A DNA stretch of 64,000 bases from a virus, in the IMG/VR virus record IMGVR_UViG_3300034105_004543, positions 38,337-102,336 of that record. One strand, 5' to 3'. Under the pieces are notes generated by a model. The model made no database searches. It was not told the origin of the DNA and saw nothing but the letters and a program-made list of their open reading frames with translations. Shown here one piece after another: positions 25,495 through 42,340 of this stretch. The position numbers and the translations under genes were made by a program. Every line of letters starts with the position of its first letter. Positions within the stretch are counted from its first letter, which is position 1.

Positions 25495-26655
25495 ATGAAT
25501 TCAGATTTCTTAGAAAATTTTGAATGGGAGCTACCTAACGGATTATCCCTCAATTCTAAAATCAAATCACCGGCAGGATCTAGAATATATTGCCACGAAC
25601 CTTACGCTGAGGAGCTAGCGAAACTTTATTTTTCGAGTAATGATAAATTTGAGGGCGGATCTAAGGATCTTTCCGATGGTGGAGTTTACACCTGTACAAT
25701 CGTAAGTGTTAAAGCTGATGAGGCTCTAGCTCAGACTGATTCAGGTCAAACGATTTATATCGATCTCAAAAGGGAGAGAAGAGATGCTGAAAAGTTGAAT
25801 ATAACTGGAATAGGTTTCTATCCTGGTGAAGAACTTAAAGCAAGAGTTAGAAAAATGAATGGAAGCTATTCAGGTTCCGTTATAGAATATTACATACACA
25901 GTCTTAGAGCTGAATTATTTGAGCAAATTAAGAAAGAAAGCAACGCTTATCTTATTAAGATTATTAGCATTAATAAAGGTGGATATATTGCTGAATTGTC
26001 AGGAATTAAATGCTTTATGCCTGGATCATTAGCAGCTGCAAATAAAATAACCGATTTTGAATCATACATCGGGAAAGAGATGCATGTTATGATTGAAGGT
26101 TACGTAGAAGCTAAGGATATATTTATTGTTTCTTACAAGAAATACCTTAATAGAATCATGGATTCTAAAATACAGGAGCTTGATCTTACTAAGAAATATA
26201 GAGGATATGTTACAGGAACAAGCGATTTTGGTGTGTTTGTTGAATGGGATGATATTTATACAGGTCTTATTCATAAGACTGAGTTTGCAGAGGGTAACAG
26301 TCTATCCGCTCTTTCACCAGGTATAGAAATAGAATTCTATGTTAAGGAGATCAAAGACAATAATAGACTGACTCTTACTTTGGACCAACCTCTTGAAAGA
26401 AACGTTATTATACAGGATCTTGAATCTCAGGTAAATGACGGAACTGTTGAACCGATGGAAGCAAAAGTTAAACATAAAAGAAAGAATGGCGCTCTAGTTG
26501 AAATTGGGGAGTTAGGACTTTTAGCGCTAATACCCCAAGATAAATTGGGTAAGAGAGGAAACAACATAAGGGTCGGTGACGACGTAACTGTAATTCCTTA
26601 CGAGGTTGAAACCATCTCGGGAAAAATATTCGTTAAAGTAGTAGATGTCGGATAA
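25495..26655 (+). CDS. Ribosomal protein S1-like protein (multiple S1/OB domains)
   Basis: S1 repeats 'NKGGYIAELSGIKCFMPGSL', 'GYVTGTSDFGVFVEWDDIYTGLIHKTE' and 'NGALVEIGELGLLALIPQDKL...VGDDVTV'. Confidence 0.8.
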   Translation: MNSDFLENFEWELPNGLSLNSKIKSPAGSRIYCHEPYAEELAKLYFSSNDKFEGGSKDLSDGGVYTCTIVSVKADEALAQTDSGQTIYIDLKRERRDAEKLNITGIGFYPGEELKARVRKMNGSYSGSVIEYYIHSLRAELFEQIKKESNAYLIKIISINKGGYIAELSGIKCFMPGSLAAANKITDFESYIGKEMHVMIEGYVEAKDIFIVSYKKYLNRIMDSKIQELDLTKKYRGYVTGTSDFGVFVEWDDIYTGLIHKTEFAEGNSLSALSPGIEIEFYVKEIKDNNRLTLTLDQPLERNVIIQDLESQVNDGTVEPMEAKVKHKRKNGALVEIGELGLLALIPQDKLGKRGNNIRVGDDVTVIPYEVETISGKIFVKVVDVG

Positions 26656-28051
26656 TAGAACACATTTTGATAAGTTAAATGCACTCAGCTCAGCCGTAAT
26701 AGGATTCGAATTTGAATTCTACACAGATCTTTTAAAAGGTAAGGCTGCTGAAGCATTATCCCAGCTTGTCAAAAAGAAAGTTATAGTTTCAGAAAAATAT
26801 CACTCAAAAACTCCTGTAGATGCTAATAACTTTAAGTTAGAACCCGATTATTCGGGTGGTAACAAAATGGTAGAGCTTATTACAGGACCACTTCCATATC
26901 TGGAGGCAATTCCAATTTTAATAAAAATATTAAAATGGATAGACGAGAATGGATGGACAAACGATAGATGTGCATTTCAATTTTCGGTAAGCTTCGATAA
27001 AAACAGAAAAGACGTAAAGGATAAAATCGAAACGATGGATAAACTTAAGTTTATATTAGGCCTTGATGAAGGTCTAATATACTCTAAGTTTGGTTCGAGA
27101 GAGAAGAACGTCTATGCAAAATCTGTAAAAAAAGTACTACCTAGAAATAGATTTTCAATACTTGAAAATATCACCACCATAGATCCTAAAATGTATAAAA
27201 TACCGGAGGACAAATATTATGGTGTAAATTTTACTAAAATGCCCAAAGGTTATATAGAATTTAGATATCTGGGTAACAGAGATTATCAGAAAAAAATTAA
27301 GGATATAAGAGAAATAATAGATTATATAATTCTCTATCTTTATGATCTATTAAGTGGTAGAATATCAGGTTATAGCAAACAGGACCTTGCTACTTTGCAG
27401 GGAATGATGAATAAATACGCTAAAGTTGTAAGGTCATTCAGTGATCCTGATATTTTTTTTAAAAATTATCCAGATTTCCATATATTCATAGATCTCAAAG
27501 GCTGGGACGAAAATGTTAAAACGTACTTCTTTGCGATAAGAGAAAAAATATTTGATCTCATAGTTGATGGTAATATAACATCATGTTATTTTAATTATGA
27601 CACGACTACGGGAAGATGCCAGATAAAAGAAGCTAGAAGTAGGGGAGCATTTGAGATTGAAGGTGTTGATCTTATATTATGTGATATAAAAAATGCAACA
27701 GTTAGAAATTGTAATATTTATAACTGCTCAATAAAAAAATCATGCATCGAGGACTCTGCCATTTTCGGTGGGACCAAGGTTATCTCATCGAAAATCAAAG
27801 CAACGATTGTTGATTTTAGTAATGAATTAAAAGATTGTTTTATTGATTGTGAAAATAAAAACATAAACTGTAAAATTGTTGGTGGTGTTTTTAGAGGCGG
27901 TATACTCGGTGATAATTCGGAGCTTAGCAAAGAAACGATGAAGGTAAAAGCTCCAGAGGATATAAGAATGACCAGATTTGTTACTGATAGCAGACTTAAG
28001 AATCTTAACGATCAGTACGGTGGTTCAAAGTTCGGTAATATGAACTACTAA
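26645..28051 (+). CDS. Amidoligase-like (COOH-NH2 ligase fold) protein with C-terminal beta-helix-like region
   Basis: 'IGFEFEFY', 'EPDYS', 'ELITGP', 'W...NG.T..RC', 'KYYGVNF', 'YIEFRYLG'; the C-terminus has short Ile/Cys-rich repeats. Confidence 0.65.
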   Translation: MSDNRTHFDKLNALSSAVIGFEFEFYTDLLKGKAAEALSQLVKKKVIVSEKYHSKTPVDANNFKLEPDYSGGNKMVELITGPLPYLEAIPILIKILKWIDENGWTNDRCAFQFSVSFDKNRKDVKDKIETMDKLKFILGLDEGLIYSKFGSREKNVYAKSVKKVLPRNRFSILENITTIDPKMYKIPEDKYYGVNFTKMPKGYIEFRYLGNRDYQKKIKDIREIIDYIILYLYDLLSGRISGYSKQDLATLQGMMNKYAKVVRSFSDPDIFFKNYPDFHIFIDLKGWDENVKTYFFAIREKIFDLIVDGNITSCYFNYDTTTGRCQIKEARSRGAFEIEGVDLILCDIKNATVRNCNIYNCSIKKSCIEDSAIFGGTKVISSKIKATIVDFSNELKDCFIDCENKNINCKIVGGVFRGGILGDNSELSKETMKVKAPEDIRMTRFVTDSRLKNLNDQYGGSKFGNMNY

Positions 28052-28065
28052 AATAAAAACTTAAT

Positions 28066-28854
28066 ATGACACAAGACGAATTAATACAGGAAATCACCGA
28101 TGCATTAAATTTTAGTTGTGCATTACCTTATAGCTTAAACGCAACTGAAATTGAAAGAATCATAAAAAGAGCTAAAGCCTGGTTTTATGATAATTATCAG
28201 TATGCTGTTGAGGATAGGGTTTTTGTTATAGCTAATAATATATTTGCTCATCCTGAATTTAAAAGAACACGCCAAATAACACTTCCCAAGTCAATAATAG
28301 GTGTATATGAAGTTAGAGAATTAGGTGGATCTGGAGTATCGGGAACACCGGATAGAGACTTTGGCGATTCTAAATTACTTGGATCTGAATTATTACTTTC
28401 CCCCTTCATGGGAGACAATATGGTTTATAGAACTGTAATGTATTCATACTTTGATCTAGCAAAAGCGTATCAACTGAATACCTTTGCATATAGATATAAT
28501 AAAAACACAAAAGCATTAACTATATTAGGTAGGGATCCGAATAGATCGGGTAAAGGCGGACAACAAGCCCAGCTTGCTCAGGGATTTGGTGTTGGTGGTA
28601 TTGATGTGTCTGTTAGATGCCATGTTGCTATTCCCGACGAATATCTTTTTGATGATGAGCTTTTTGTTAGATATTGCATAGCTAAGTCCAAAATATCGCT
28701 TTCGCAGATGCTTAGTGTTTTCACGTATAATCTTCCTGGTGGCGTTACTATAAACGCTAGTGAAATAGGATCTCAGGGAACTACCGAGCTTCAGGAGGTA
28801 ATGGACATGATAAATGGGGAAAACACAAGTTCTTACTTTTTGCAGTGGAATTAA
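28066..28854 (+). CDS. Neck protein, T4 gp13-like
   Basis: 'ITLP..IIGV', 'FVRYCIAKSK', and 'NLPGGVTIN...I...G..EL..V' signature. Confidence 0.75.
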   Translation: MTQDELIQEITDALNFSCALPYSLNATEIERIIKRAKAWFYDNYQYAVEDRVFVIANNIFAHPEFKRTRQITLPKSIIGVYEVRELGGSGVSGTPDRDFGDSKLLGSELLLSPFMGDNMVYRTVMYSYFDLAKAYQLNTFAYRYNKNTKALTILGRDPNRSGKGGQQAQLAQGFGVGGIDVSVRCHVAIPDEYLFDDELFVRYCIAKSKISLSQMLSVFTYNLPGGVTINASEIGSQGTTELQEVMDMINGENTSSYFLQWN

Positions 28855-28862
28855 CAGTAATC

Positions 28863-28899
28863 TAACGATATTTCTGATAATATATCAGAAATATCGTTA
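28863..28899. terminator. Perfect 17-bp inverted repeat between convergent genes
   Basis: TAACGATATTTCTGATA-ata-TATCAGAAATATCGTTA. Confidence 0.6.
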
Positions 28900-28906
28900 A
28901 TTATTT

Positions 28907-30238
28907 TTATATATTTACTAGATTACCTTTGCTATCAAATATCATGAATTCAAAATCCATACCCATTTCGAGACATCTTTGCATTTTCATTATATTTTTA
29001 TCTTCGTGCATTTTATAAGTATATGGGCTTTTAACTTCCAATATTTTATTTATTGATTTTATATAGATATCGGGGTAATATCTATTTCCCCCACTGTATA
29101 TTATTTGGCCGGTTATATTTGATATATCATGCATATCTGTAAGTATATCATTCTCTTCGAATTGAGTCAATAATATATCCATTGCAAACTTTTCGTAGCC
29201 CTGAAGTTTTATGATTTTTCCACTCGGCAATGTATAATCATAATACCTTCTCATTCCTAACATTGCTTTTTCGTGTATTTCTGGGATTCTCATATTGTGT
29301 TCAACCCCGTACTTTTCAAGCATTGATTTTTTCATAAGATCTATATCCATTAATGCGCACTTAAATCCATATTTTCCAATACTGGTTTTATATTTTTTAT
29401 CCTTTGTTGATTGGTGGCTTGTTGGATGTTTCCCGTCCCAATCCAGATTGTACTTCTTTGTGCATTTTTCTCTGAATTGATTTGTGCTGGTATAATATTT
29501 AGCACCATGTCTTTCCAGATTAGTCTTCTCTATGCCTTCTCTATATCCAGGTATATCCCAAGGATTTTCGATACCATATTTATTAAGCATTCCATTTTTG
29601 GAACCTTTTACTGTTGCTTTTTTTTTGCAAATTTCAGAATTACATGCTTTCGAATAGTTTGAATCCTTTTTATCTCGTATTTCAGAGAATTTATTCATAA
29701 AGCCATATTTCCTTGGTTTCCCACAAAATTCACACAATTCCAACTCCATTTTATTAAAGAATACATGATAGAATCTTTGGGAATCACTTATGTTTGTATA
29801 TTCTTCATCCAGGAACATAGTCAGCGAAAGCAGTTGATTTCTGGTATCTGTGTCTCCCGATATTTTTGCTATTAGCGAACCATATCCCTGTTTGCTATTG
29901 CCTCTTTCTTTAAAGTCATCTATTAGGCAGCTAACTGAACCGCAATGTGTGTAATAGTTTGAATCCTTTTTATCAATCTTATCCGAGAATCTATCATACA
30001 CTGAAAATTTGGCATTTCTTGCACAGTATTTACATTTTATTATGTTGTGCTCATTAAACCATACATGGTAGAATCTTTGTCCTATAGACACATTATCATA
30101 TTCTGTGTCCAGGTATCGTGTTGATTCCTCTAATTCTGAGATCATACCTGAATCCCGTTTCATTTTATTTATAAATGGTCCTAAAACTTTGGTTTCCTTA
30201 TTTTTCTCTTTCTCTATTAATTCTTCTAAATTTTTCAT
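28907..30238 (-). CDS. Free-standing putative homing endonuclease (two Cys-rich modules, KYG repeats, PD-(D/E)xK nuclease)
   Basis: Duplicated 'QRFYHV..N......C..C...DKKDSNY...C.S..C' module; KYGxxN repeats; 'LQGYE', 'YYPDIYI....ILEVKS.YT'. Lies on the opposite strand within the structural cluster. Confidence 0.7.
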   Translation of the reverse strand: MKNLEELIEKEKNKETKVLGPFINKMKRDSGMISELEESTRYLDTEYDNVSIGQRFYHVWFNEHNIIKCKYCARNAKFSVYDRFSDKIDKKDSNYYTHCGSVSCLIDDFKERGNSKQGYGSLIAKISGDTDTRNQLLSLTMFLDEEYTNISDSQRFYHVFFNKMELELCEFCGKPRKYGFMNKFSEIRDKKDSNYSKACNSEICKKKATVKGSKNGMLNKYGIENPWDIPGYREGIEKTNLERHGAKYYTSTNQFREKCTKKYNLDWDGKHPTSHQSTKDKKYKTSIGKYGFKCALMDIDLMKKSMLEKYGVEHNMRIPEIHEKAMLGMRRYYDYTLPSGKIIKLQGYEKFAMDILLTQFEENDILTDMHDISNITGQIIYSGGNRYYPDIYIKSINKILEVKSPYTYKMHEDKNIMKMQRCLEMGMDFEFMIFDSKGNLVNI

Positions 30239-30256: not shown

Positions 30257-30316
30257 TATATATCATATTTGAATTTATTATTTTAATTTATCATCGTCAA
30301 ATTTTATTGATATATA
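30257..30316. promoter_or_regulatory. Divergent pair of GATATATA elements
   Basis: TATATATC at 30257-30264 (minus strand, 18 nt before ATG 30238) and GATATATA at 30309-30316 (17 nt before ATG 30334). Confidence 0.6.
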
Positions 30317-30333
30317 GGATGAATTAATTCACT

Positions 30334-30705
30334 ATGAGAGAAATTTATAATAGAGATCCCAACGATCCAAAGTACAATCCCTACCAACTTGAGGTATCAG
30401 ATCCTGTGGAGATCTGTACAGGTCAGCTTAAAATGCTACTACTTACAAACAAAGGGGAAGTTTTAGGCGATCCTAAATTTGGATTGAATTTGGAGGATCT
30501 TATTTTTAATCTGGAGCTTTCTGAATATAGTATAAAAAAGGAACTTGATCTTAACCTTAAGGTCTATGTTCCTCTTTTTGCGGCATTGGGTGGTACATAT
30601 CAATTGAATTTTTATGTTGGCACACAAAGGGATATAGCAACACTTGATTTTAATATAGAATCTGACGGAGGACTTAGTCCGCTGGTTACACTAAAATTAA
30701 CATAA
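30334..30705 (+). CDS. Baseplate wedge subunit, T4 gp25-like
   Basis: 'LKMLLLTNKGEVLGDPKFGLNLEDLIF' gp25/GPW signature. Confidence 0.85.
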   Translation: MREIYNRDPNDPKYNPYQLEVSDPVEICTGQLKMLLLTNKGEVLGDPKFGLNLEDLIFNLELSEYSIKKELDLNLKVYVPLFAALGGTYQLNFYVGTQRDIATLDFNIESDGGLSPLVTLKLT

Positions 30706-30712
30706 CAAAGAA

Positions 30713-32437
30713 ATGAATATATTTAAAAAAAATAATATACTTATAGATGGATTATTAGGTGATACCTTTGCATTCCTTCAGAGCACGTATAATCAGACAG
30801 CTAATGTCTTTACTGTTGCATCAGCATGGGGACAGATACTTTTTGTTCTGCAGAATCTCTCACAGCTTATACTTTATTTTATAGAAGATTCGATAACCGA
30901 ATTAAATATTCAGCAAGCAACCAGGGATTATTCGGTTAGAAGTTTGGCTAGAATTGCGGGTTATGATCCAGGTAGAGCATCAGCAGCTCAGGGTGAAGTT
31001 TCTATTTCGTGGAATACCAGGGATGGAGATGTTAGTGGTGGTGCTGTTATAATAAAGAATAATTCACAGATAAGATGCTTGCAAAATGGTAAAATATATT
31101 CTCTTAGATTTGGTAGTAACGAAATTACTATCCCATTGGTAAGAGGAAACTCCATATCCGCTAAGATAGTTCAAGGAAATTTCGAGAGCGCGACCCTTAC
31201 CGGGGGTGGTACAGCTTTGCAAAGCTTCAATCTGCCATCAACTGCAGGAGCATACATAGATCAATTTTATATAGATGTTTATGTCAACGAGGAAAAATGG
31301 AGAAGATATGATTCACTTTATGATATACCTCTTAATGGGAAGGGATATTTAATTAGAAGCGGTATTCAGGAGGGTATAGATCTTTATTTTGGTAATTCTA
31401 ATTTTGGTATGGTCCCACAACCAGGATCAATGATAAGAGTTGAATACCTACAAACTAGTGGCATAAGTGGTAATAGTAATTCAACAAAGGAAACCCCTCT
31501 CACTTACAAATTTGTAACATCAGGAACGGATCTTTTTGGCGGCGAAGTTGATTTGAATTTATACATAGACATTAAAAACAATATAGATCCCACCTTTGGT
31601 ACCAACCCCGAAAGTATATCACTTATAAGGTTGGTTGCTCCAAAAACTAGTAGATCTTTTGTTTTTGCAAGACCTGAAAATTATGAGATATTCTTAACTA
31701 AATTTGGTGTATTTTCTCAAATCCAGGCATTTTCAACATTTGATGATGATTATCTCGATGATGATAACATAGTTTATCTTTATTTAGTACCCGATATAAC
31801 TCTAAATTTAACAACTAACGAGGATTATTTTAGTGTTCCTTATGCTAACTTTCTCCTAACTGCACAACAGAAAACAAAAATATTAAATCTGATACAGGAT
31901 ACGGGATCGATGATAGCAACCACAGTCGTGAAGATAGTTGAACCAGTTATAGCAAGATATGTTATTAATATTATTATATCAATTTTTGAAGGTAATGACC
32001 CAGAGACTATAAAGCAGTCCATTAGGAAGGGAATTTCTGATTATATGTTAAATAATAAAAGGAGAGATAAAATACCTAAATCTGATTTTATAGCTCTTAT
32101 TGAGGGAATAGATGGTGTTGATTCAGTTTCACTTTTCTTCATAGGCCAGAAAAATGAGGAGAATCAAATAGCAATTAAAAATCTTACTAATGTTAGTAAT
32201 GCACAATATGAAGAGATTATAGGAATGGATAGTTTTGGCGATATAATTATAGGTAGAAACGAACTAGTTATACTAAGAGGAGGATGGGATGATAGAAACG
32301 GAACATCTTTCACTGAGGGTGTAGTAGCAGGTAAGCCTGGACCACTTAATATAACTGTTGCTTCCCTAGTCCCTAGAAATTTTAGAAGCGAATTGACAGC
32401 TGATTTAAAAACTAGATTAGCCGCTCAAAATAAATAA
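30713..32437 (+). CDS. Baseplate wedge subunit, T4 gp6 / baseplate J-like
   Basis: 'QATRDYSVRSLARIAGYDP', 'LYFGNSNFGMVPQPGSMIRVEYL..SG..GN', 'PESI..IR..AP', 'IEGIDGVDSV'. Confidence 0.85.
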   Translation: MNIFKKNNILIDGLLGDTFAFLQSTYNQTANVFTVASAWGQILFVLQNLSQLILYFIEDSITELNIQQATRDYSVRSLARIAGYDPGRASAAQGEVSISWNTRDGDVSGGAVIIKNNSQIRCLQNGKIYSLRFGSNEITIPLVRGNSISAKIVQGNFESATLTGGGTALQSFNLPSTAGAYIDQFYIDVYVNEEKWRRYDSLYDIPLNGKGYLIRSGIQEGIDLYFGNSNFGMVPQPGSMIRVEYLQTSGISGNSNSTKETPLTYKFVTSGTDLFGGEVDLNLYIDIKNNIDPTFGTNPESISLIRLVAPKTSRSFVFARPENYEIFLTKFGVFSQIQAFSTFDDDYLDDDNIVYLYLVPDITLNLTTNEDYFSVPYANFLLTAQQKTKILNLIQDTGSMIATTVVKIVEPVIARYVINIIISIFEGNDPETIKQSIRKGISDYMLNNKRRDKIPKSDFIALIEGIDGVDSVSLFFIGQKNEENQIAIKNLTNVSNAQYEEIIGMDSFGDIIIGRNELVILRGGWDDRNGTSFTEGVVAGKPGPLNITVASLVPRNFRSELTADLKTRLAAQNK

Positions 32438-32442
32438 TAACG

Positions 32443-32973
32443 ATGCAATCATATTCCCCATTTTTTCCCGATTCTGATTTGAGTATTAATTATACAGTTA
32501 AAGGAATAACACCCAAAACTACTAATACGACTTTCTATGATAAGAAGGATTTATATCCAACAGTCGATCTTGCTACCAGCAGGGCCTATAATATAGGATG
32601 CTCCGGATATAGAGCTATTACTGCAAACGCTAATGGTAGTTATATGTTTGGTCCATGCTCCTCAGTTTCGGATTATAAAAAAATAATGAAGGAGCTTTCT
32701 CCTGAAAATGTTGATAGAAGATATTATGATTTTGATCCTGATCAGAATTTATATGACGTGAGGGATGCACAGAATGACAATTTATACAATGGATTTAATT
32801 ATAGAGAGCAGATTCTTAGAAGAAGCTTATCCAATGTTATATATAAGGATCCCGTTAAGGAAGGGATTCTAAGCTATTTTGAAAGGGTAGTATATGGATT
32901 GATTGAATCAACAAAGGAGATAAAAAACTTTGTTAATTATACAGTTAAAAGAAACAATAAAAGAGTTTTCTAA
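32443..32973 (+). CDS. Hypothetical baseplate-region protein
   Basis: Tightly packed in the operon; contains 'A..IGCSG.R......GPC'. Confidence 0.55.
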   Translation: MQSYSPFFPDSDLSINYTVKGITPKTTNTTFYDKKDLYPTVDLATSRAYNIGCSGYRAITANANGSYMFGPCSSVSDYKKIMKELSPENVDRRYYDFDPDQNLYDVRDAQNDNLYNGFNYREQILRRSLSNVIYKDPVKEGILSYFERVVYGLIESTKEIKNFVNYTVKRNNKRVF

Positions 32974-32979
32974 TTTAAA

Positions 32980-35900
32980 ATGGCAAATCTAAATCTTAAT
33001 TTTTATAATAAAAACGGTAATCCATTAAATTTTGATTACATAGGAGCAACCGGTCCAACCCCTCTTGATACCAAGTTTTCTCATATCTTAGGTGCTTCCG
33101 CATCTACGTCTGGTTATTTTCAATGGAGTGAAACATCCGATGATTATTCGCTGGTTTTTAATATAGCTGATGTAAATAGTACGGATCTTTATAAATGGTG
33201 TTTAGAAGTAAATGATTTTATAAATAAAGGTGCAACTGTTTATCTCAATGGTTATATAGCAGTTGCTAATACAAACTTTAAAGGTAAAATCACAAGCGTT
33301 AGTAATATTGGTTCAACCTTTACTATTACCTTACCCAAGAGTTATTTTCTTGGTCAGAATATAATAAGCTATGACACCCAAATTTATTTCGAGGGAACAT
33401 ACGATAACAGACCTGGCGGGTACTTTAAAGGTAATATCTATTTTGATCCGATATCAACTGGTCTCTATGAGAACCAGCAGGTTTTTGTGGTGCAAGAATT
33501 TATAAATGGTTCTGGCGATGTTGAATATGGTCTTCCACACACCTCGAATATTGGTTTAACCGGTGCAAGATGGAGAACTAGATGGTATAATAATAATTAT
33601 GGTGATGTTGATGTTTCTGAGATTATATTCACTTATGCGATAGAGGATCAGTTAAGTGGTGGGGAGGGTCAACCTTTAATTATCAGTTATCCAAATATGG
33701 CTATTCCTGTTGGATCTTCTGTGGGAGATTCCTATTCCAATGGATTAATTGTTACTAGCAATATTGAATCTGATGCTATAGCAATAAACGTAGCACTAAA
33801 TTCACCGGATGATCTGGATAATGTTTATGAGAGGAAACTTATCATTGAAGACATAACAACAGATACTCCACAGAAAGTTATAGAAATTGATTTCTATGGA
33901 CAGACCGTTGCGGAGGACGAAAGATTTAAGGTTCTTCTTGAAAATATAGGAAGATCATTTTATAACAGTGACTCTATCATACTAAGAGATCATGATCCGG
34001 CTGAACCTGTTCCAAATTTCGTGGAAATCAACGAAAAGAGAAAAGAATTGCTTATAGCAGGTGATGAAATATTTCCCTATATTGGTAGCTATAAGGGTCT
34101 TATTAATGCTCTTAAGTTCTTTGGGTACCAGGACATGAGGATAAAGGAGTATTGGTTAAATCTAAACTATAAAAATCTAAAATTAGAATCACCATTACAA
34201 CAAAACCAAACCTTTCTTAATAAGATAAAGAGTGGAGAATCTAAAAATGGATATTCGCAATCGTATAACGTTGGCGATGTTTTGGATAATGAAAATTCCG
34301 GGAAATATAAGCTTATACAGACTTATGGTCCCGATGGTGATGGAAATTATGTGCTTAATGTCACTTCCGAAAATACACAACTACCTAGTAAATCCATTAA
34401 AAAAACATCTCTATTTGGACTTTATTATGATCTGAATAAGGTTACCGGTGACATTGACGAATATGGGTATCCTATTGTTACTGATGCTTTTAAATTTACG
34501 CAGGAGGAGATATTAATAAAAATATTTGCTTTAAAGGAAAGACTTAAAAGAGATTATCTGCCATTAAATGCCAGAATAATTGACATAACTGGGGAAGGTG
34601 TTTATTTCATGATACAGAATACAAAATCATGGACAGATCAGATGATAAGATCTGATATAAACATAGGGTATGATTTCGATTTTTTTCCTAATCCCGATTT
34701 TGGTTTTATTGAGGATCTTAGAAATTTTAACATAAGACCAAATTCCAATTATATACAAACTCCAAGTTCCTATGACAATTCATATGAACTGGATGTTAGT
34801 TTTCCTGGTGGAACCGGAAGTGCCATTAGATTTTCTGGTAGTATACCATATGGTATCACTGGAGACAATCCCACTATAAAATTAGAAGCTGGTAAAACAT
34901 ATAATTTCAAAGTTAATGATTCATCCGGATATGGACTGGATTTTAATATAACAAACTATGCGGAATTTCCTAACAATCAGCAATTATGGAATTCTAATGT
35001 GCCATCGGGTATAATTAATAACGGAGCTACTGGCGGTAGTTCCCTGGAGTGGTATATAGCTCCTGGTGCTACTGGCACAATCCATTATTATTCAAATAAT
35101 AATCCGGTTTCTTTATCCGGCAGTGTTGAAATAATACCTGCCACATTATCGGACCTTGGTAATATAGTGAATCCCCTGGATTTTCAACAAAATTATACAC
35201 CTGCTCAAAACGAATCCCTATTGTTGGCTATTGATAAATTTTATAATCTAAAGCAAAATGGCAAGATAGTGGAGCTGGGTGATGATAGATTTGATTCACC
35301 TGAATATATCGATCCGTTAACTGGAATTCCGTACGAAACCCCTGTTGGTATGCCAATAATTCTTGAATTATCGACAGATAGATGGGAATGGAATGAATTA
35401 AATATAGATTGGGATGCACTGCTGATACCAACGTATAGACCTGGGGATAGAGTTAAGGTTAAATCGACAGGCATATTTGGTACCGTTAGAGTTGTCTATT
35501 ATAGCACCGGCGAATATGAGATAGCATTAGATAATTCAACGACAGCAATTTTCGGCGAGACTGAGCTTTTTTCAACAGTTCAGAATTACACCATATTAAA
35601 CTGGAAGAATGTTGATTTCTCTAATATGGTGGAAATTGAATGGCTGCTAAATAAATCTGCAACCCAACCGGGTACTCCATATAATTTCGCATTTAGAGGG
35701 TCTATAGTGGACTATTATAAACTTGCCCACTTCTTACCTTACACTGGGGAATATCAGGTTATATGTAACACCTATGATGCTTTTAATACGAAAACCACAG
35801 TTATTAAGAATGCATCAATATTTGTAGATCCTAAAACCATTGATATAGATTCATGGACAAGATACAGGGAGGTTGAGAATTATCTATGGGACAATGTGGA

Positions 35901-38475
35901 TCGGGAATGGAAGGAATATGAATCCATATGGGAGTACCCAGCGGAGGGATCAACAATAGACACTCTTAGAAAAACTATACCTACTGAGATACTTGACTTT
36001 GCAACATATGGAAATAAGGCCGATGACGGTCAGGATCTATTGGTTAGAACCACAGAGTCACCAACTGGAGCTTATGGCACCATAATATTGAATCAGGAAA
36101 TTCTTGTAGTTTCTAGTGTAATATCGAATCAGATCACGATTGGCCAGTACGGGTATGCAATAGTCACAACAACAACCCCACACTCTTTACAAAATGGTGA
36201 TAATGCAACATTAACTGGAAGTATACCAGAGATCAATGGTAGATGGCCAGTAACAGTTACTGGTGCGTCATCTTTCTATATACCAGTTACCCTCAGTTAT
36301 GCATGGTCCGGTGTTTTATTAGAAATGACACCAATAAACTATCTGTATGTTGATATCTCCATATACACATCTCAGGAAATTCTAAGTATCGGATCAATAT
36401 CCATTTATGTTAATAATAGACTGATTGGAAATAGTAAAACCGGCGACACTTTATATAACACAGCAAATGAGATAACGTCATCTATAAATTCTCTTAGAAC
36501 ATATCCGGATTACTTTGCATCGTGCGAGAATCCACAGGAAAATCCAGTGACAATCACAATATATGCACCGGGTGAGCTTGGAGCGGAACAAAATGGTGTG
36601 CCTTTGAGGGTTGAAGAAACCGGATCTGTAAATGTCATTTCATATTCACCAGTTTTAAGCGGCGGTATTAATTCTAGTGATTATTATGTTTATTGGGACG
36701 AGAACGGCGAGAATTATCCAAACCCAAATCTTAAATATTGGGGAACGAAGAGATTAAATTGGCAGATATTTAATGATAGTACATGGGATAATGGCTATGC
36801 CCATTCTTGGTATGATTATGAGTTTAATAACGATTGGTTGGGTGGATATGAATTACATTCAATTGTAGCAAACGATAAACTTAGAATTTCCACTGGTAAT
36901 GAGACTTATCCATTTCCAAGCACTCTAACTTTTTCTGGTGGTTATAATCTAACCTTATCGGAAGCAGCAGCACAGCTTAATGCTGCTGATTCACATATAA
37001 CAAATTTTTACTATAGAGTAATTCCAGACGATACAGGTTCGTTGCTAACAGTAAATGGTCCAATGAATATCGATATGGGTAATTCGATATTGAATAATGG
37101 ACCATATCCACCGCCTCCATCATTGATCGGGGGAAGTCCATTACTTGTGGTTGATTTTGGTTATGCCGGGGGATCTCCTGTTACAACATCAACGACAACA
37201 ACAAGTACAACAAGTACAACAACAACGACAACCACGACAGCTGCTCCTACAACAAGTACCACCACCACAACAACATTACCTACGACTTATAGTTATCAAG
37301 CAATTATTTATGATTGTGTGACATGTACTCCTACTGGAAGCAATGTTAGCTTTACGAATGGTGAATTATTAACTGTAGGTAAATGGTATGCATGGGAAAA
37401 TTACTCAACTGGAATTTATTATAAAATCTTAATTGATGTTTATAATGGTACAATTGGAGGTACTCCTAATGCGATACTATATGATGTAGATAAGAAAGAT
37501 ACCTGTGCGGAGGTAGTCTGTACGGATTGCGCATTTGCTGGGGGTACCGCTGTTTTTGTACCTGCAACCACAACCACAACAAGTACTACTAGCACAACAA
37601 CAACCACAACAATACCGGTTCCTGTTTCTAGTAAATATGGAGATACTGCAAATAACCCAAGATTTATGGTTATGGATTCCTCTGGTAATCTTTATGTAAC
37701 AACTTCTTATTCAAATATTATAACAAAAATAACACCTGGAGGTGTATCAAGTACTTTTGCAACAGTGGGAACTGGTCAGCAGGGTCCGATGGGAATTACT
37801 ATTGACCCTTCAAATAATCTCTATGTTGCAAATGAATTTGCAAGTACTGTTTCAAAAATAACACCTGCTGGTGTAGTTACTATTTTTGCAACTACTGGAT
37901 CTGGTCCATGGGGAATTGTTAGGGATCGTTTTGGGTATTTTTATACTTCAAATAGTAATGCAAATAGTGTTACGAAAATAACTCCGGGAGGGGCTTCTAG
38001 TCAATACGGAGGCACGATAGGAGCTGCTCCCCGTGGAATTGTTATTGATTACGATGGTAATGTCTATGTAGCATGTCAGGGTTCAAATTCAGTTTGGAAA
38101 ATTACACCTACTGGAACTACTTCTAAATTAGCAGATACCGGAATTAGTCCAAATGGAATTGTTATGGATTCATCGGGTAATATTTATACTGCAAATACAG
38201 GATCTGATAATGTTACAAAAATAACGCCTGCGGGTGCAGTTACTACTCCTTTTGCAACTACTGGCGATGCGCCAATTTCGATTGCTATTGATCCTTCGGG
38301 TAATCTTTATACTTCAAATTATGGATCTAATAATGTTTCAAAAATTACTACATCAGGGGTATCTACAATATTAGGAACTACTGGAAATAATCCATATGGA
38401 ATTTTTCTTGATCCTTTGAATAATGTATATACAGCGAATTTGAATTCGAACACAGTAACAAAAATAACAGTTTAA
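32980..38475 (+). CDS. Very large baseplate/fibre-type structural protein with C-terminal Thr-rich linkers and a 7-repeat NHL/Vgb-like beta-propeller
   Basis: 1831 aa following gp6; 'IGSYKGLINALKFFGY' (gp7/gpI-like position); Thr tracts at 37183-37287 and 37567-37611; seven 'D.SGN.Y..N..SN.V.KITP.G' repeats at about 37651-38472. Confidence 0.65.
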   Translation: MANLNLNFYNKNGNPLNFDYIGATGPTPLDTKFSHILGASASTSGYFQWSETSDDYSLVFNIADVNSTDLYKWCLEVNDFINKGATVYLNGYIAVANTNFKGKITSVSNIGSTFTITLPKSYFLGQNIISYDTQIYFEGTYDNRPGGYFKGNIYFDPISTGLYENQQVFVVQEFINGSGDVEYGLPHTSNIGLTGARWRTRWYNNNYGDVDVSEIIFTYAIEDQLSGGEGQPLIISYPNMAIPVGSSVGDSYSNGLIVTSNIESDAIAINVALNSPDDLDNVYERKLIIEDITTDTPQKVIEIDFYGQTVAEDERFKVLLENIGRSFYNSDSIILRDHDPAEPVPNFVEINEKRKELLIAGDEIFPYIGSYKGLINALKFFGYQDMRIKEYWLNLNYKNLKLESPLQQNQTFLNKIKSGESKNGYSQSYNVGDVLDNENSGKYKLIQTYGPDGDGNYVLNVTSENTQLPSKSIKKTSLFGLYYDLNKVTGDIDEYGYPIVTDAFKFTQEEILIKIFALKERLKRDYLPLNARIIDITGEGVYFMIQNTKSWTDQMIRSDINIGYDFDFFPNPDFGFIEDLRNFNIRPNSNYIQTPSSYDNSYELDVSFPGGTGSAIRFSGSIPYGITGDNPTIKLEAGKTYNFKVNDSSGYGLDFNITNYAEFPNNQQLWNSNVPSGIINNGATGGSSLEWYIAPGATGTIHYYSNNNPVSLSGSVEIIPATLSDLGNIVNPLDFQQNYTPAQNESLLLAIDKFYNLKQNGKIVELGDDRFDSPEYIDPLTGIPYETPVGMPIILELSTDRWEWNELNIDWDALLIPTYRPGDRVKVKSTGIFGTVRVVYYSTGEYEIALDNSTTAIFGETELFSTVQNYTILNWKNVDFSNMVEIEWLLNKSATQPGTPYNFAFRGSIVDYYKLAHFLPYTGEYQVICNTYDAFNTKTTVIKNASIFVDPKTIDIDSWTRYREVENYLWDNVDREWKEYESIWEYPAEGSTIDTLRKTIPTEILDFATYGNKADDGQDLLVRTTESPTGAYGTIILNQEILVVSSVISNQITIGQYGYAIVTTTTPHSLQNGDNATLTGSIPEINGRWPVTVTGASSFYIPVTLSYAWSGVLLEMTPINYLYVDISIYTSQEILSIGSISIYVNNRLIGNSKTGDTLYNTANEITSSINSLRTYPDYFASCENPQENPVTITIYAPGELGAEQNGVPLRVEETGSVNVISYSPVLSGGINSSDYYVYWDENGENYPNPNLKYWGTKRLNWQIFNDSTWDNGYAHSWYDYEFNNDWLGGYELHSIVANDKLRISTGNETYPFPSTLTFSGGYNLTLSEAAAQLNAADSHITNFYYRVIPDDTGSLLTVNGPMNIDMGNSILNNGPYPPPPSLIGGSPLLVVDFGYAGGSPVTTSTTTTSTTSTTTTTTTTAAPTTSTTTTTTLPTTYSYQAIIYDCVTCTPTGSNVSFTNGELLTVGKWYAWENYSTGIYYKILIDVYNGTIGGTPNAILYDVDKKDTCAEVVCTDCAFAGGTAVFVPATTTTTSTTSTTTTTTIPVPVSSKYGDTANNPRFMVMDSSGNLYVTTSYSNIITKITPGGVSSTFATVGTGQQGPMGITIDPSNNLYVANEFASTVSKITPAGVVTIFATTGSGPWGIVRDRFGYFYTSNSNANSVTKITPGGASSQYGGTIGAAPRGIVIDYDGNVYVACQGSNSVWKITPTGTTSKLADTGISPNGIVMDSSGNIYTANTGSDNVTKITPAGAVTTPFATTGDAPISIAIDPSGNLYTSNYGSNNVSKITTSGVSTILGTTGNNPYGIFLDPLNNVYTANLNSNTVTKITV
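37183..37611 (+). repeat. Two mucin-like Thr/Ser-rich low-complexity tracts
   Basis: TTSTTTTSTTSTTTTTTTTAAPTTSTTTTTTLPTT and TTTTTSTTSTTTTTT, encoded by ACN-rich DNA. Confidence 0.95.
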
Positions 38476-38489
38476 GTAAATAAAACCAA

Positions 38490-38576
38490 ATGATAGTATT
38501 CCTAATATTAGTCACTAAGCTGGGATTAGTTTATGTATACACATTTAAACGCATCTCCTGGTTAAAACCACTTTAA
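38490..38576 (+). CDS. Possible 28-aa hydrophobic small protein (MIVFLILVTKLGLVYVYTFKRISWLKPL)
   Basis: ATG after an A-rich leader (AAATAAAACCAAATG) like neighbouring genes; fills an otherwise empty gap; below the ORF-track cutoff. Confidence 0.3.
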   Translation: MIVFLILVTKLGLVYVYTFKRISWLKPL

Positions 38577-38609
38577 TTATGAGCTTATATTAATAGAAAT
38601 ATAAAATAA

Positions 38610-39368
38610 ATGAAAACAACTCTTGTAACAATAAATACCCCAGGCATAACAACTGGACCAACTTTCGATATATTTTCCAATGTGGATCTTATTATACCGC
38701 TGGTTTCTGGTGTGGCAAAAAGTTCACTCCTTTCTGGTTACAGTGTAACGAATGTACCTGATGCAGCCACTAGCATCAGAGTTCAATCTATAGGAACATG
38801 CACAACATATGTAGATCTCTCTATAACAACACCAACTACCACCACAACTAGTACCACCACTAGTACAACTACCACCAGTACAACTACCACAAGTACAACA
38901 ACGATTTTATCCTGGCCATCGGCATTATTTTCGTTTTATTATGCTACTGGGGGAATAAACAATTGGGAAATTTATGGATACAGCGATCAATCTTCACCGA
39001 TAAATATTCTCGGCGGTGGTCAGGATTTTGGTTCATTAGCAGTCCCAACGGACCCTGCATTTAATAATTTCGAAGTTGTTACATTTCAGTGGTACGGAGA
39101 AACGTGGGCAGGACCTGGCTATAGAAATACAGTTGTTACACTCACAATAAAAGGTGCAACATCTGAACCTACAGGTTGGTCTAATATAACAGTTAATTAC
39201 GCTGGAACAATAACAACACTACCTAGAATAGGACCTAATACCGTAGTTCAAATATACAATGAGCAGGATGGTTTTGGAATTTATAATAATTATGTTACAT
39301 GGAGATGGACCAATGTTACTCCTATACCTTTTGGATATAACTGGTCAGTTACTGTTGATGTTAACTAG
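38610..39368 (+). CDS. Two-domain protein with central Thr-rich linker (putative virion decoration/appendage protein)
   Basis: About 70-aa N-terminal domain, then TTPTTTTTSTTTSTTTTSTTTTSTTT (38826-38903), then a Trp/Tyr-rich beta domain. Confidence 0.65.
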   Translation: MKTTLVTINTPGITTGPTFDIFSNVDLIIPLVSGVAKSSLLSGYSVTNVPDAATSIRVQSIGTCTTYVDLSITTPTTTTTSTTTSTTTTSTTTTSTTTILSWPSALFSFYYATGGINNWEIYGYSDQSSPINILGGGQDFGSLAVPTDPAFNNFEVVTFQWYGETWAGPGYRNTVVTLTIKGATSEPTGWSNITVNYAGTITTLPRIGPNTVVQIYNEQDGFGIYNNYVTWRWTNVTPIPFGYNWSVTVDVN

Positions 39369-39434
39369 TATAATTATGAATATGATAGAATAAAAAAATA
39401 AATCATTCAGGTTTTGATTGTAATTTCATATACA

Positions 39435-39464
39435 CGAAACAATAAATATTCATCATTCTATAAC
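39435..39464 (+). promoter_or_regulatory. Putative bipartite promoter CGAAA-N17-TCTATAAC
   Basis: Matches the motifs at 9092 and 14447; 19 nt upstream of the glycosyltransferase ATG. Confidence 0.5.
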
Positions 39465-39483
39465 TTTTAAATATTTTTAACCT

Positions 39484-40446
39484 ATGCTGAATAAGGTCGT
39501 TTTCATTTGTGCTCAACCCGATGTTCCATATTTTCATTGGCAGGTTGAGGTTTTCATACATAATGCTATGAAAAATGGCATAAATCCCAATTGGATTGAG
39601 ATTGTATTTGGTTATGATGCTTCACCATCTGCGGAGGGTATGGCTCTTGCTGGAAGATACCCATATGTTAGAGTTTTCTTTTATAAGCAGGATAAAATTG
39701 AAAATTATGGATATATCCCAGTACTGAGGCCAAACATCCTCTCCAAGCATTTCGATGTTTATCCTGAACTTACCAATGAGAATATATTTTATCATGATTC
39801 TGATATTATATTCAGGGAGCTTCCTGATTTTGATCTTTTAACAAATGATGATGTCTGGTATCTTAGTGATACTGTTTCTTATATAGGATCAAATTATATA
39901 AAAAGTAAATCTGAGGATCTATTTATGGATATGTGCAATATTGCTGGTATTGATCCTGTAATCGTTTCTAAAAATAATCAAAATTCCGGAGGTGCTCAGT
40001 ATTTAATGAAAGGAATAGATAGTGAATTTTGGAAGGAAGTTGAATTTCTATCTCTTGATCTTTATAAATATATGAGCGATAGAGAATCCTCGGAGAGATC
40101 CAATATGCATGCAGCGGATATTGCTTCATATAATCCAATTCAAAAATGGTGTGCAGATATGTGGGCTGTTTTTTGGTGCGGATTAAAGAGAGGTAATACC
40201 ATTAGAATATCGGATGAACTTGGGTTTAGTTGGGGTTCATTCCACGGGAGAAGCGAATGGGAAAGGCATAAAATTATGCATAATGCTGGAGTTGTCGATA
40301 ACGGGAATGGTAAATTTTTCTATAAAGGAGAATTTATAAACAAGTCACCATGGGAAGCGGATTTTAGTCAAATTGATCCACATCACAATTCATACAACTA
40401 CGTTCAAGCAATATTGTATGCTAAGGAAAGAAGGAATCTTCCATAG
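39484..40446 (+). CDS. GT-A fold glycosyltransferase resembling peptide O-glycosyltransferases (HPAT/SGT1, GT95/GT96-like)
   Basis: N-terminal 'PYFHWQ', 'Y.P..RP', DxD motif 'FYHDSDIIF', 'GGAQYLM', 'WCADMWA', 'IMHNAG'. Confidence 0.7.
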   Translation: MLNKVVFICAQPDVPYFHWQVEVFIHNAMKNGINPNWIEIVFGYDASPSAEGMALAGRYPYVRVFFYKQDKIENYGYIPVLRPNILSKHFDVYPELTNENIFYHDSDIIFRELPDFDLLTNDDVWYLSDTVSYIGSNYIKSKSEDLFMDMCNIAGIDPVIVSKNNQNSGGAQYLMKGIDSEFWKEVEFLSLDLYKYMSDRESSERSNMHAADIASYNPIQKWCADMWAVFWCGLKRGNTIRISDELGFSWGSFHGRSEWERHKIMHNAGVVDNGNGKFFYKGEFINKSPWEADFSQIDPHHNSYNYVQAILYAKERRNLP

Positions 40447-40467
40447 TTTTTGTGTCGATTTTTTTTA

Positions 40468-40475
40468 GATATATA
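40468..40475 (+). promoter_or_regulatory. GATATATA putative late promoter element
   Basis: Octamer 20 nt upstream of ATG 40496. Confidence 0.6.
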
Positions 40476-40495
40476 ATCTGAATAAAAATCTATAA

Positions 40496-42340
40496 ATGGC
40501 AGATGTACAATTAGGCATAAATCAGGGAGATCGTATATATTATTATGATCTTAGTCAAGGAGGTGTATCCAGACAATGGACATTCCAGGGTGGTACGCCA
40601 GCTACTGGTGCTGCATATGGACCTGATATTATGTACTATGGAGTTAACTACAGTGGATACGACACTGGTTTAGTCGTAACTGGGGCAGGTGGATTAACTG
40701 CGGAAGCTTACAAATCCGGTATAGTGGTTGTTTATCCCGAGATATTTGATCCATCTATGCTGATAACTACAGGAATTCCAGTTGATGTTGTAAGTAGATC
40801 ATCTCTGGGTAAAACCCTCACTTATGGGGTGACTGGAACTGTGAGTAGTGGAATAGATTTGTATAGCTGGACAATACCACAATTGGGGCCAAGTAATTCT
40901 CCAACTGTGGATTTTACTTATAATGATTGGTATTTATTAACTGGTACATATTTAGGAAGCCCAAATTCATCCTATATTACAAATGTTACCGCTGGTGTTG
41001 TATCTGTAGTTGGTAACGAGACACTATTAACCAAACAAATAGATTTTAGAAAAATCGGGGTTACAGAGAGTGTTAATTACTGGTCTCCTGGTACTTATGC
41101 AACCTCAGGTAAATATTATGATTGTTCAGTTATGCCACAGAGAACCTCCGCTTTAGGGCTCGGCGGAAACTCTCTTGTAATTAAGATAGATTTTAGCCAG
41201 TATTCCCCTAGATGGAATAATACAAGTTTTCATTCGACGCAGGAGGCAGTATATCTATTACCAAATAGTCCGGATCTATCCAAGACATATTCACCAATAA
41301 AAACAAATATTATTTTGAATGGCGATGTACTTGTTAATATTGGTGCAACGGGAGGATATTCTACTCAGCCCGGAGTTATGCTAGGAAATTATATAATACC
41401 TAATGATATAGCATCCAGATTTGCAAGCAAATTTTTTATAACTGACCAGTCTTTAGGCGGTGTGATAACTGCATTGGTGGATGGTAATAGAAAATGGAAT
41501 AATAATGCCGTATCCGATTTTATGGAAAATAAGTATTATCTTTCAGGTTCTAGTAAATTTATAGAATTAGGTGGATTCTACCAAACTGCACTAGATGGTG
41601 CTACTGTTAATTTACCCAATGTCAATCTTGCCTCTGGGATGGGATTTATGAATGAAAGTGGAAATTATACCTGGGACGGCGGATGGCCAAATGTGGATGG
41701 ACCTCCATTCCCGAGTGAATGGTTTCATGGAGTTTCTATACCTTCCAGTCGTCTTTTGTATGATCTATATAATTATACAGTTAATATTGATGTCAGATTG
41801 AAACTTAGAGATTCTGCTGGATCCATCATAGATGATTTTCAATTTATAATTTCTCCCGTCAACGGGGAAGGAAATACACCAGATTATTTAATGATAACTG
41901 CAAGTGAAACCAGCTACGGTAGCTCCAATGGTTTAGATTATTTAATCAATAGCGGAATAGCCTCCAGGGGAGGAGGATTATCTAACAATATAATATTTGA
42001 AAATAATCAGGATCTTTCTCCTTACAATGACACACCCACTGGACTTTATAATGGATATGGGGCTTTTGGTGCTCTCAAAATGTCAATAATAGATCCCAGA
42101 ACTAGCTCGTCATATTCAAATCGTTATATACATTCACTAGAAATAACTTGGGGAACACAAATGTCCGAATTTTTATTTTATATGGTTGGTGATCAAGTAA
42201 ATTTCCCATCTTTCCCATTTGCATCGGATGTTAATGGACCTACAATATCATGGACTGGATTACCTAGTAAAATAACAGTACCAACATCGTCATATACCAA
42301 TTACTTTAGAGGCTGGTACATAGGCGGTGGATTATCATAA
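40496..42340 (+). CDS. Putative virion structural protein with N-terminal PKD-like domains
   Basis: 'I.QGD.IYYYDLSQGG..SRQWTFQGGTPA.....P.I.Y...GYD..LVVT' PKD-like motif. Confidence 0.6.
   Translation: MADVQLGINQGDRIYYYDLSQGGVSRQWTFQGGTPATGAAYGPDIMYYGVNYSGYDTGLVVTGAGGLTAEAYKSGIVVVYPEIFDPSMLITTGIPVDVVSRSSLGKTLTYGVTGTVSSGIDLYSWTIPQLGPSNSPTVDFTYNDWYLLTGTYLGSPNSSYITNVTAGVVSVVGNETLLTKQIDFRKIGVTESVNYWSPGTYATSGKYYDCSVMPQRTSALGLGGNSLVIKIDFSQYSPRWNNTSFHSTQEAVYLLPNSPDLSKTYSPIKTNIILNGDVLVNIGATGGYSTQPGVMLGNYIIPNDIASRFASKFFITDQSLGGVITALVDGNRKWNNNAVSDFMENKYYLSGSSKFIELGGFYQTALDGATVNLPNVNLASGMGFMNESGNYTWDGGWPNVDGPPFPSEWFHGVSIPSSRLLYDLYNYTVNIDVRLKLRDSAGSIIDDFQFIISPVNGEGNTPDYLMITASETSYGSSNGLDYLINSGIASRGGGLSNNIIFENNQDLSPYNDTPTGLYNGYGAFGALKMSIIDPRTSSSYSNRYIHSLEITWGTQMSEFLFYMVGDQVNFPSFPFASDVNGPTISWTGLPSKITVPTSSYTNYFRGWYIGGGLS

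Follow-up and report, generated by a model that had tools for sequence, protein, structure and literature searches.

What does a glycosyltransferase gene do for a phage when it lies directly behind the only two genes of the contig that encode threonine tracts? This question is raised by a viral stretch of 64,000 nucleotides, positions 38,337 to 102,336 of IMG/VR record IMGVR_UViG_3300034105_004543 (here called the window; all nucleotide positions below refer to it unless another locus is named), in which three open reading frames (ORFs) follow one another on the plus strand: 32980-38475 (1831 aa), 38610-39368 (252 aa) and 39484-40446 (320 aa). The ORF list agrees in these coordinates with the original prediction, a note made from the sequence alone, which had read the three genes as a candidate virion O-glycosylation cassette. 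From the analysis reported here, the 320-aa protein is probably a peptide O-glycosyltransferase that acts on the Thr tracts and builds mucin-like stalks.

Association of Thr tracts with the enzyme gene

The three Thr/Ser tracts described in the original prediction are present in the translations and were recovered by tract scans, all on the plus strand: tract 1, a proposed O-glycan acceptor and stalk, at aa 1402-1436 of the 1831-aa protein (37183-37287), tract 2 at aa 1530-1544 of the same protein (37567-37611), and tract 3 at aa 73-98 of the 252-aa protein (38826-38903), where the chain is predicted to be disordered (predicted local distance difference test, pLDDT, of ~30-37). Such tracts are far beyond chance, and even under loose criteria neither the 64-kb window nor the 102-kb contig as a whole has any others; all three lie in the two genes immediately 5' of the enzyme gene. 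The tracts are written in mixed ACA, ACG, ACC and ACT codons in imperfect repeats, which indicates that it is the amino acid, rather than a repeat in the DNA, that is constrained.

A tight, repeated association of enzyme homologs with tracts on virion proteins, of the kind that the original prediction had proposed to look for across phage genomes, is evident in 80 IMG/VR loci that carry a homolog (39-83% identity), with 16 phoH-anchored loci lacking a homolog as controls. In 53 of 79 cases the gene immediately upstream of the enzyme gene (position -1) encodes a tract, as against 33 of the 1017 genes at all other positions; the proportion is 12/73 at position -2 and 8/67 at position -3. For positions -3 to -1 this gives 73 of 219 genes, versus 3 of 221 for positions +1 to +3, with tracts in at most 2% of genes at each downstream position, and none of the 314 genes in the control loci has a tract. 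Among the 20 loci without a strict tract, roughly 13 show Thr runs of 6-8 residues at position -1. Of all amino acids, Thr alone makes tracts of this kind across 1176 genes from related loci (89 genes, versus one for Pro).

Close relatives of the window were collected as loci anchored on the gp6-like protein, all of which have the gene row encoding a 123-aa, a 574-aa, a 176-aa and a large protein. Tracts are present in 21 of the 21 relatives that have the enzyme, where the large protein measures 1546-1839 aa, and in 0 of the 20 that do not, where it measures 1338-1477 aa with one outlier of 2513 aa. A tree of the gp6-like protein requires four joint changes of enzyme and tracts, three of them on well-supported branches. 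Since the parts adjoin, the data from this lineage show a cassette, not yet a functional link.

The link appears stronger, judged from sequence, in phages unrelated to the window, because there the candidate acceptors are non-homologous and not always adjacent to the enzyme gene. In Enterococcus phage VPE25 the capsid and connector genes flank the enzyme gene, and the tail-tube protein encoded five genes away has a run of ten Thr as its C-terminus; in Clostridium phage phiCTP1 it follows a tail-tube gene with a poly-Thr end, and gp11 likewise ends in poly-Thr. Thr runs end both the capsid and the tail-tube proteins of Lacticaseibacillus phage R3.3, and poly-Thr is found on a protease or scaffold protein and on the tail tube of Staphylococcus phage RQ1 and on two small proteins of Lactobacillus phage Semele; Chryseobacterium phage MA9V-3, with the enzyme and Thr runs, follows the same pattern. 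Bacillota prophages in genome assemblies have C-terminal Thr tails on the capsid, on a 106-aa head-tail protein and on the tail tube, and their enzyme gene has the tail-tube gene on one side and the genes for chaperone and tape measure on the other. The poly-Thr proteins of the Gram-positive phages include capsid, adaptor and tail tube.

Eight Gram-positive relatives, picked by capsid or tail-tube similarity, have no enzyme in the whole record and no Thr tails; the same search recovered the gene in two positive-control records. The R3.3 capsid, for example, ends in two Thr runs, and the 73%-identical capsid of Sabazios ends in ...FTASPKA. Counted over whole records as six-codon Thr runs, the enzyme-bearing phages have 15 (VPE25), 2 (phiCTP1), 10 (Semele), 24 (RQ1), 15 (MA9V-3), 2 (R3.3) and 0 (SAC12B) runs, and the enzyme-less phages have none (phiJL-1 and Paenibacillus phage Bob) or a single non-coding one (Sabazios). 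The Sabazios run, six ACN codons beyond the last coding sequence in an unannotated terminal stretch, was discounted as a protein tract. Taken with the contrasts from the lineage of the window, there are at least six or seven concordant contrasts, for which a sign test gives p ~0.03-0.016 if they are independent, an independence that was judged by eye.

Two of these phages show possible frameshift sites. In RQ1 (L107:8223-8925) the tail-tube gene ends ...ACT CCC TAA, and a +1 slip at CCC_UAA would enter an overlapping ORF of ~85 residues of repeated Thr runs; some of the tail-tube subunits may in this way acquire a long poly-Thr extension. The case resembles Listeria phage PSA, in which +1 frameshifts reportedly occur in capsid and tail genes. 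In VPE25 (L002:5722-5880) an unannotated 52-codon poly-Thr ORF in the -1 frame overlaps the stop of the major capsid gene (…GCA AAG TAA…), and slippage at A-AAG could produce a capsid variant whose tail is rich in Thr.

Fold and family of the 320-aa enzyme

The enzyme matches PHROG 4417 (E 1.1e-62), a family annotated as "function unknown", and has no match in Pfam or in a sequence search of the PDB. Its own family is large, with 2288 clusters in a set of 5.8 billion proteins and 822 representatives at 50% identity. An AlphaFold 2 (AF2) model built from a 60-sequence alignment has a pLDDT of 96.9; Foldseek returned more than 300 matches to it at E <= 0.001, those listed being GT-A enzymes, and VIA-align gave a best Z of 14.6, with 213-247 residues aligned for the GT8-type matches at 6-11% identity. 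The predicted fold and these matches support the GT-A assignment made in the original prediction. The best scores are those of glycogenin and the Skp1 alpha-galactosyltransferase Gat1 (Z 14.6 each), followed by WbbM (13.8), the catalytic domain of UGGT and the xylosyltransferase domain of LARGE1 (both 13.7), LgtC (13.6) and GlyE, which belongs to the serine-rich-repeat adhesin pathway of S. pneumoniae (13.4); A64R of the virus PBCV-1, which glycosylates a capsid, scores 10.7. Protein-directed transferases (glycogenin, Skp1 Gat1, UGGT, XXYLT1, GlyE) therefore stand alongside lipopolysaccharide (LPS) enzymes (WbbM, LgtC), and the best structural matches are not simply DNA- or LPS-acting enzymes, the outcome that had been named in advance as speaking against a peptide acceptor.

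The three predicted motifs, Y16-F-H-W19-Q20, D105-S-D107 (nt 39796-39804) and W222-C-A-D-M-W227, are present and fall on mostly invariant or near-invariant alignment columns. D105-x-D107 follows directly on the central strand 100-104 and does not vary in either the set of 60 or the set of 100 homologs; neither do G269 and K281, and H266 (nt 40279-40281) is kept in at least 90% of the homologs of each set. H266, G269 and K281 may be the counterpart of the GT8 motif HxxGxxKPW, whose His and Lys serve Mn2+ and the diphosphate.

With GT8-type retaining enzymes, several of which act on proteins or protein-bound glycans, the window enzyme shares the whole-chain fold, the DxD after the fourth strand and, putatively, the C-terminal His and Lys, but no detectable sequence relationship. 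The Pfam model Glyco_transf_8 (PF01501) matches neither the enzyme nor any of 60 homologs at E <= 1, and nothing on this contig, versus matches in 6 of 14 control genomes. The original prediction had called the enzyme plant-like, pointing to a similar order of aromatic-WQ, DxD and Trp-rich motifs, and to Ser/Hyp-rich acceptors, in the hydroxyproline O-arabinosyltransferases (HPAT, GT95) and the peptidyl-serine galactosyltransferase SGT1 (GT96). That label is unsupported: the HPAT model (PF23452) has no significant match to the family, with one of 60 members at E 0.23 as its best and none of 100 representatives at E <= 0.01, and the closest folds are GT8-type, in a fold comparison that contained no solved HPAT or SGT1 structure. 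The GT8 and HPAT models alike recognise none of the 100 more diverse representatives, and an HPAT search of this contig and 301 Bacteroidota genomes, run with no positive control, gave no matches. A neighbouring Atlas cluster, in which the HPAT model falls on 10% of members, is a lead only. On its predicted structure the enzyme would work like a GT8-type enzyme, and by sequence it is placed in neither GT8 nor GT95.

Longer homologs have a second glycosyltransferase domain, namely Glyco_transf_7C (13/100), GT25 (2/100), GT6 (1/100) or a domain recognised by GT2 models (up to 7/100; the counts may overlap). Rare fusions (P0167, P0127) join the enzyme domain to a radical-SAM/SPASM or a Methyltransf_24 domain, and the radical-SAM/SPASM fusion fits a peptide-maturation context. 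A PDB profile search also returned TAL-effector repeats (E 1.8e-7), which we rejected as chance: the score sums a 30-residue likeness (…MCxIVGI…NSGGAQ…) over many repeats, and each single stretch is insignificant.

The same comparisons bear on what the enzyme transfers. If it modified the tracts with a sugar-1-phosphate, as Stealth/GlcNAc-1-phosphotransferases do, or with another nucleotide-activated group, the stalks would have phosphodiester decorations. The fold does match the phosphotransferase CpsY and the catalytic domains of GlcNAc-1-phosphotransferases (Z 9.2-9.4), but at scores clearly under those of the GT8-type matches (Z 13-15), and the fusion partners are ordinary glycosyltransferase domains; the sole non-spurious sequence hints in this direction, PDB 7s6n at E 0.2 and Stealth_CR2 at E 0.17 in one member, are insignificant. 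We consider such a transfer very unlikely. A protein that has retained the glycosyltransferase fold and lost its catalysis, and that serves as an assembly factor or minor virion component aiding the folding or attachment of Thr-tract proteins, is highly improbable, since 100 representatives at 33-47% identity show little or no variation in DxD, His and Lys, a pattern typical of active enzymes, and since the domain is repeatedly fused to catalytic glycosyltransferase domains and is present in non-phage peptide loci; what speaks for it is the placement of the gene inside virion modules, between capsid and connector or tail-tube and chaperone genes.

Homologs in Bacteroidota peptide loci

The homologs on Bacteroidota chromosomes are two-domain proteins of ~500-590 aa. 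Small peptides with a double-glycine (GG) leader and a Cys-rich core are encoded in 23 of 48 such loci, versus 1 of 32 loci with single-domain homologs, and several of the peptides have a Thr run right after the leader or at the C-terminus. In five genomes of 3.1-6.7 Mb, all 6 of the 6 exact matches to the DNA pattern of the leader motif fall in the ~21-kb enzyme loci. Two of the loci (L214 and L206) encode two thioredoxin-like proteins, a VKOR-thioredoxin-C39 protein, a Peptidase_C39+ABC protein (E 4e-37) and HlyD.

Known glycocin clusters combine a GG-leader Cys-rich precursor, a glycosyltransferase that modifies it, a C39-ABC exporter and thiol-disulfide oxidoreductases (PMC8620827). This composition, as in the clusters for sublancin, glycocin F, enterocin F4-9 and pallidocin (PMC8620827), is found in the Bacteroidota loci of the two-domain homologs, to which the comparison applies rather than to the window; it differs in that the known glycocin transferases belong to family 2, whereas the Bacteroidota loci instead have the window-enzyme family fused to a second glycosyltransferase domain. 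Read from their gene content, the Bacteroidota loci are independent support for a peptide acceptor. Glycocin-like loci with one to three GG-leader peptides were seen at L214:3600-16000 and L206:5900-16100 (also L199, L200, L203, L215, L217 and L231), in the genera Sphingobacterium, Pedobacter, Chitinophaga, Mucilaginibacter and Hanamia.

Architecture of the tract-bearing proteins

Both tract-bearing proteins run from a conserved core or anchor through a Thr linker to a fast-changing cargo domain. The core of the 1831-aa protein, a protein in baseplate or fibre position, is aa 1-1401 (32980-37182), as defined by alignment to shorter orthologs: its residues 1301-1400 align to the extreme C-terminus of the 1338-1477-aa orthologs of enzyme-less relatives (1301-1397 of 1401 in one of them, 1296-1393 of 1396 in another), so that everything beyond aa 1401 is an add-on, and in several of these relatives the large protein stops exactly at the position where tract 1 starts. 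Between the two tracts the translation shows a small Cys-containing cargo domain (~aa 1437-1529; 37288-37566), with no homolog among ~250 fetched loci. The C-terminal cargo is an NHL-type beta-propeller (aa 1558-1828; 37651-38463), which the original prediction had recognised and which Pfam matches to Vgb_lyase (E 8.2e-32), NHL repeats (E 2.5e-13) and SGL (E 5.6e-11) bear out; among the relatives fetched it is unique to this window.

In the 252-aa protein, the N-terminal anchor (aa 1-72; 38610-38825) is a small beta-sandwich by its AF2 model (pLDDT 80-95), and its likeness to FN3-like sandwiches is weak and generic (Z 5.0-5.5, root-mean-square deviation 2.6-2.8 A over ~69 residues). This anchor is kept in 38 proteins of related loci, each with a Thr tract directly after it. 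The Trp-rich all-beta cargo domain that follows tract 3 (38904-39368), for which the AF2 model is of low confidence, is an orphan, with no homolog in the ~250 fetched loci, almost no relatives in the Atlas and just two homologs among 5.8 billion proteins. All of these domains are encoded on the plus strand. The layout, as read from the sequences, fits displayed stalks and binding modules; of the predicted stalks that present a propeller and a Trp-rich domain on the virion, it is the display that the layout favours, and the glycosylation remains putative.

The acceptor and a proposed mechanism

Several results weigh against a peptide acceptor. The Fisher tests on the IMG/VR loci, with p 5e-10 to 2e-47, treat related loci as independent; the lineage of the window offers only 3-4 independent contrasts (sign test p 0.25), and, with enzyme and tracts adjacent, a joint gain or loss there could be a single indel. 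About 6 of the 80 homolog-bearing viral loci have no Thr-rich neighbour. In Herelleviridae the enzyme gene lies beside replication and sigma-factor genes, outside the virion module; in Lactobacillus phage SAC12B of this family (MK504446.1) the homolog stands beside sigma-factor, recA and holin genes, and the whole 137-kb genome is free of runs of five or six Thr codons, which makes SAC12B a genuine exception to the pairing of enzyme and tract. Thr-rich linkers can function unmodified, and the LPS enzymes WbbM and LgtC are among the nearest folds.

These observations would suit an enzyme that acts on a non-protein acceptor, such as an envelope polysaccharide, teichoic acid, LPS or phage DNA, with the tracts as unmodified linkers that travel along in a mobile fibre cassette: the near folds of WbbM and LgtC, the co-inheritance of enzyme and tracts that adjacency allows in this lineage, the tract-free SAC12B genome and the gene position near replication genes in Herelleviridae would all be expected. 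Such an acceptor is nonetheless unlikely, because the coupling spans non-homologous candidate acceptors in unrelated phages, with some tracts several genes off, because the appended tails are absent from the 67-73%-identical capsid proteins of enzyme-less phages, and because the cellular homologs lie in peptide-maturation and not polysaccharide loci; in addition, no membrane segment is evident in the enzyme translation, which opens with the first beta-strand. The phage DNA glucosyltransferases known to us have another fold.

For glycosylation of the Thr tracts, the reading that we prefer, the following mechanism can be proposed. The enzyme would be a soluble, cytoplasmic, metal-dependent GT-A transferase that, late in infection and before assembly, takes a nucleotide-sugar of the host and puts sugars on the Thr hydroxyls of the two virion proteins encoded upstream, that is, on the C-terminal add-on of the 1831-aa protein and on the linker of the 252-aa protein. 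The linkage would be alpha, because the nearest folds are retaining enzymes. Dense O-glycosylation would turn the tracts into stiff, protease-resistant, mucin-like stalks that hold the Cys-containing domain, the NHL beta-propeller and the Trp-rich beta domain away from the baseplate; that the tracts are the acceptor, and are glycosylated at all, we infer from the association and the fold, and the stalks may serve in reach, rigidity, shielding or adhesion.

Beyond this locus, we lean, with some reserve, towards a more general reading: a bare poly-Thr run may be a portable glycosylation tag that Bacteroidota and Bacillota phages place on capsid, adaptor, tail tube and baseplate appendages, sometimes by programmed frameshift, and the two-domain versions in Bacteroidota may glycosylate secreted GG-leader peptides.

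Gene neighbourhood and promoter motifs

The gene row that leads to the enzyme opens with baseplate wedge genes on the plus strand (30334-32973), encoding a gp25-like protein of 123 aa, a gp6-like protein of 574 aa and a 176-aa protein, identified by PHROG matches (phrog_261, E 3e-4; phrog_219, E 2.7e-33) and by conserved order; the order 123-574-176-large protein is kept in 60 related viral loci. On the 3' side of the enzyme gene are genes for a 614-aa and a 1364-aa protein without a family match, followed by phoH on the opposite strand. The description of the enzyme gene as the only non-structural gene between gp25 and phoH is left unconfirmed, because the 614- and 1364-aa neighbours match no family. 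A megablast search of 37000-41000 against phage records gave no match. Just 5' of the baseplate genes, 25495-30238 holds three conserved genes, for an S1-domain protein (386 aa), a 468-aa protein with a weak amidoligase-like match and a 262-aa protein, and a DUF7487 gene (443 aa) is inserted nearby on the opposite strand in the window and in some relatives.

A promoter of its own, which the original prediction had given to the enzyme gene, was not confirmed: a scan for sigma-70-type promoters found sites at chance level (14, versus 13.0 in shuffles), and the octamer GATATATA is absent before 39484, as it is before 38610. The octamer occurs upstream of several genes, including those at 30334 (copy at 30309) and 40496. 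Its 11 copies, versus 9.6 expected, amount to no overall over-representation; eight of the 11 lie within ~50 nt 5' of start codons (4124, 12988, 25444, 30257 on the minus strand, 30309, 40468, 47326 and 62201), and GATATATA may be part of a phage promoter. Its placement would suit a late unit that begins with the baseplate genes and closes with the enzyme gene, which is only a hint, because the octamer is not over-represented overall.

Relation to known systems

In the mycobacteriophages Che8, Corndog and Myrna, phage glycosyltransferases act on the phages' own virion proteins, capsid and tail-tube proteins carry the glycans at their C-termini, and the glycans blunt antibody recognition, as summarised in PMC12619734 and PMC12363180. 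This is the nearest described system. The C-terminal positions of its glycans match those of the poly-Thr tails in the enzyme-bearing Gram-positive phages; the hosts differ, the phages here being Bacteroidota-type jumbo and Bacillota phages and not actinobacteriophages, and the candidate acceptor here is a pure poly-Thr tag or linker that is also found on baseplate appendages. In our set the enzyme gene is placed in virion modules and is coupled to tracts on proteins of the capsid, tail tube and baseplate, and from this we infer the acceptor relation.

A64R of PBCV-1 is likewise a virus-encoded cytoplasmic GT-A enzyme that glycosylates its own virus's structural protein, but its fold match is weaker than those of the GT8-type enzymes and its virus is eukaryotic. 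To our knowledge, the PBCV-1 capsid glycans are not on poly-Thr tracts, and glycosylated virions of tailed phages are documented mainly for mycobacteriophages. Full-text literature searches returned no description of the enzyme family or of its pairing with poly-Thr; PMC7698478, considered as a glycosylated-virion paper, is about flavonoid glycosides and was set aside.

Significance

If the Thr tracts are indeed glycosylated, virion glycosylation would be widespread, given the more than 2000 clusters of homologs and the 77 phage records, which include phages of Enterococcus, Staphylococcus, Lactobacillus, Lactococcus and Clostridium, groups of concern for therapy use or as trouble in dairy fermentation. 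PHROG 4417 would gain a function, and there would be an explanation for the unusual poly-Thr tails in which capsid and tail-tube proteins end. A short, genetically encodable tag and a single enzyme would then suffice for making mucin-like stalks, and soil Bacteroidota would hold a candidate class of glycosylated peptides. Should poly-Thr prove to be a portable tag, it would mean that bacterial viruses beyond the actinobacteriophages have a general mucin-type O-glycosylation system and that glycocin-like peptides are served by a second class of enzyme.

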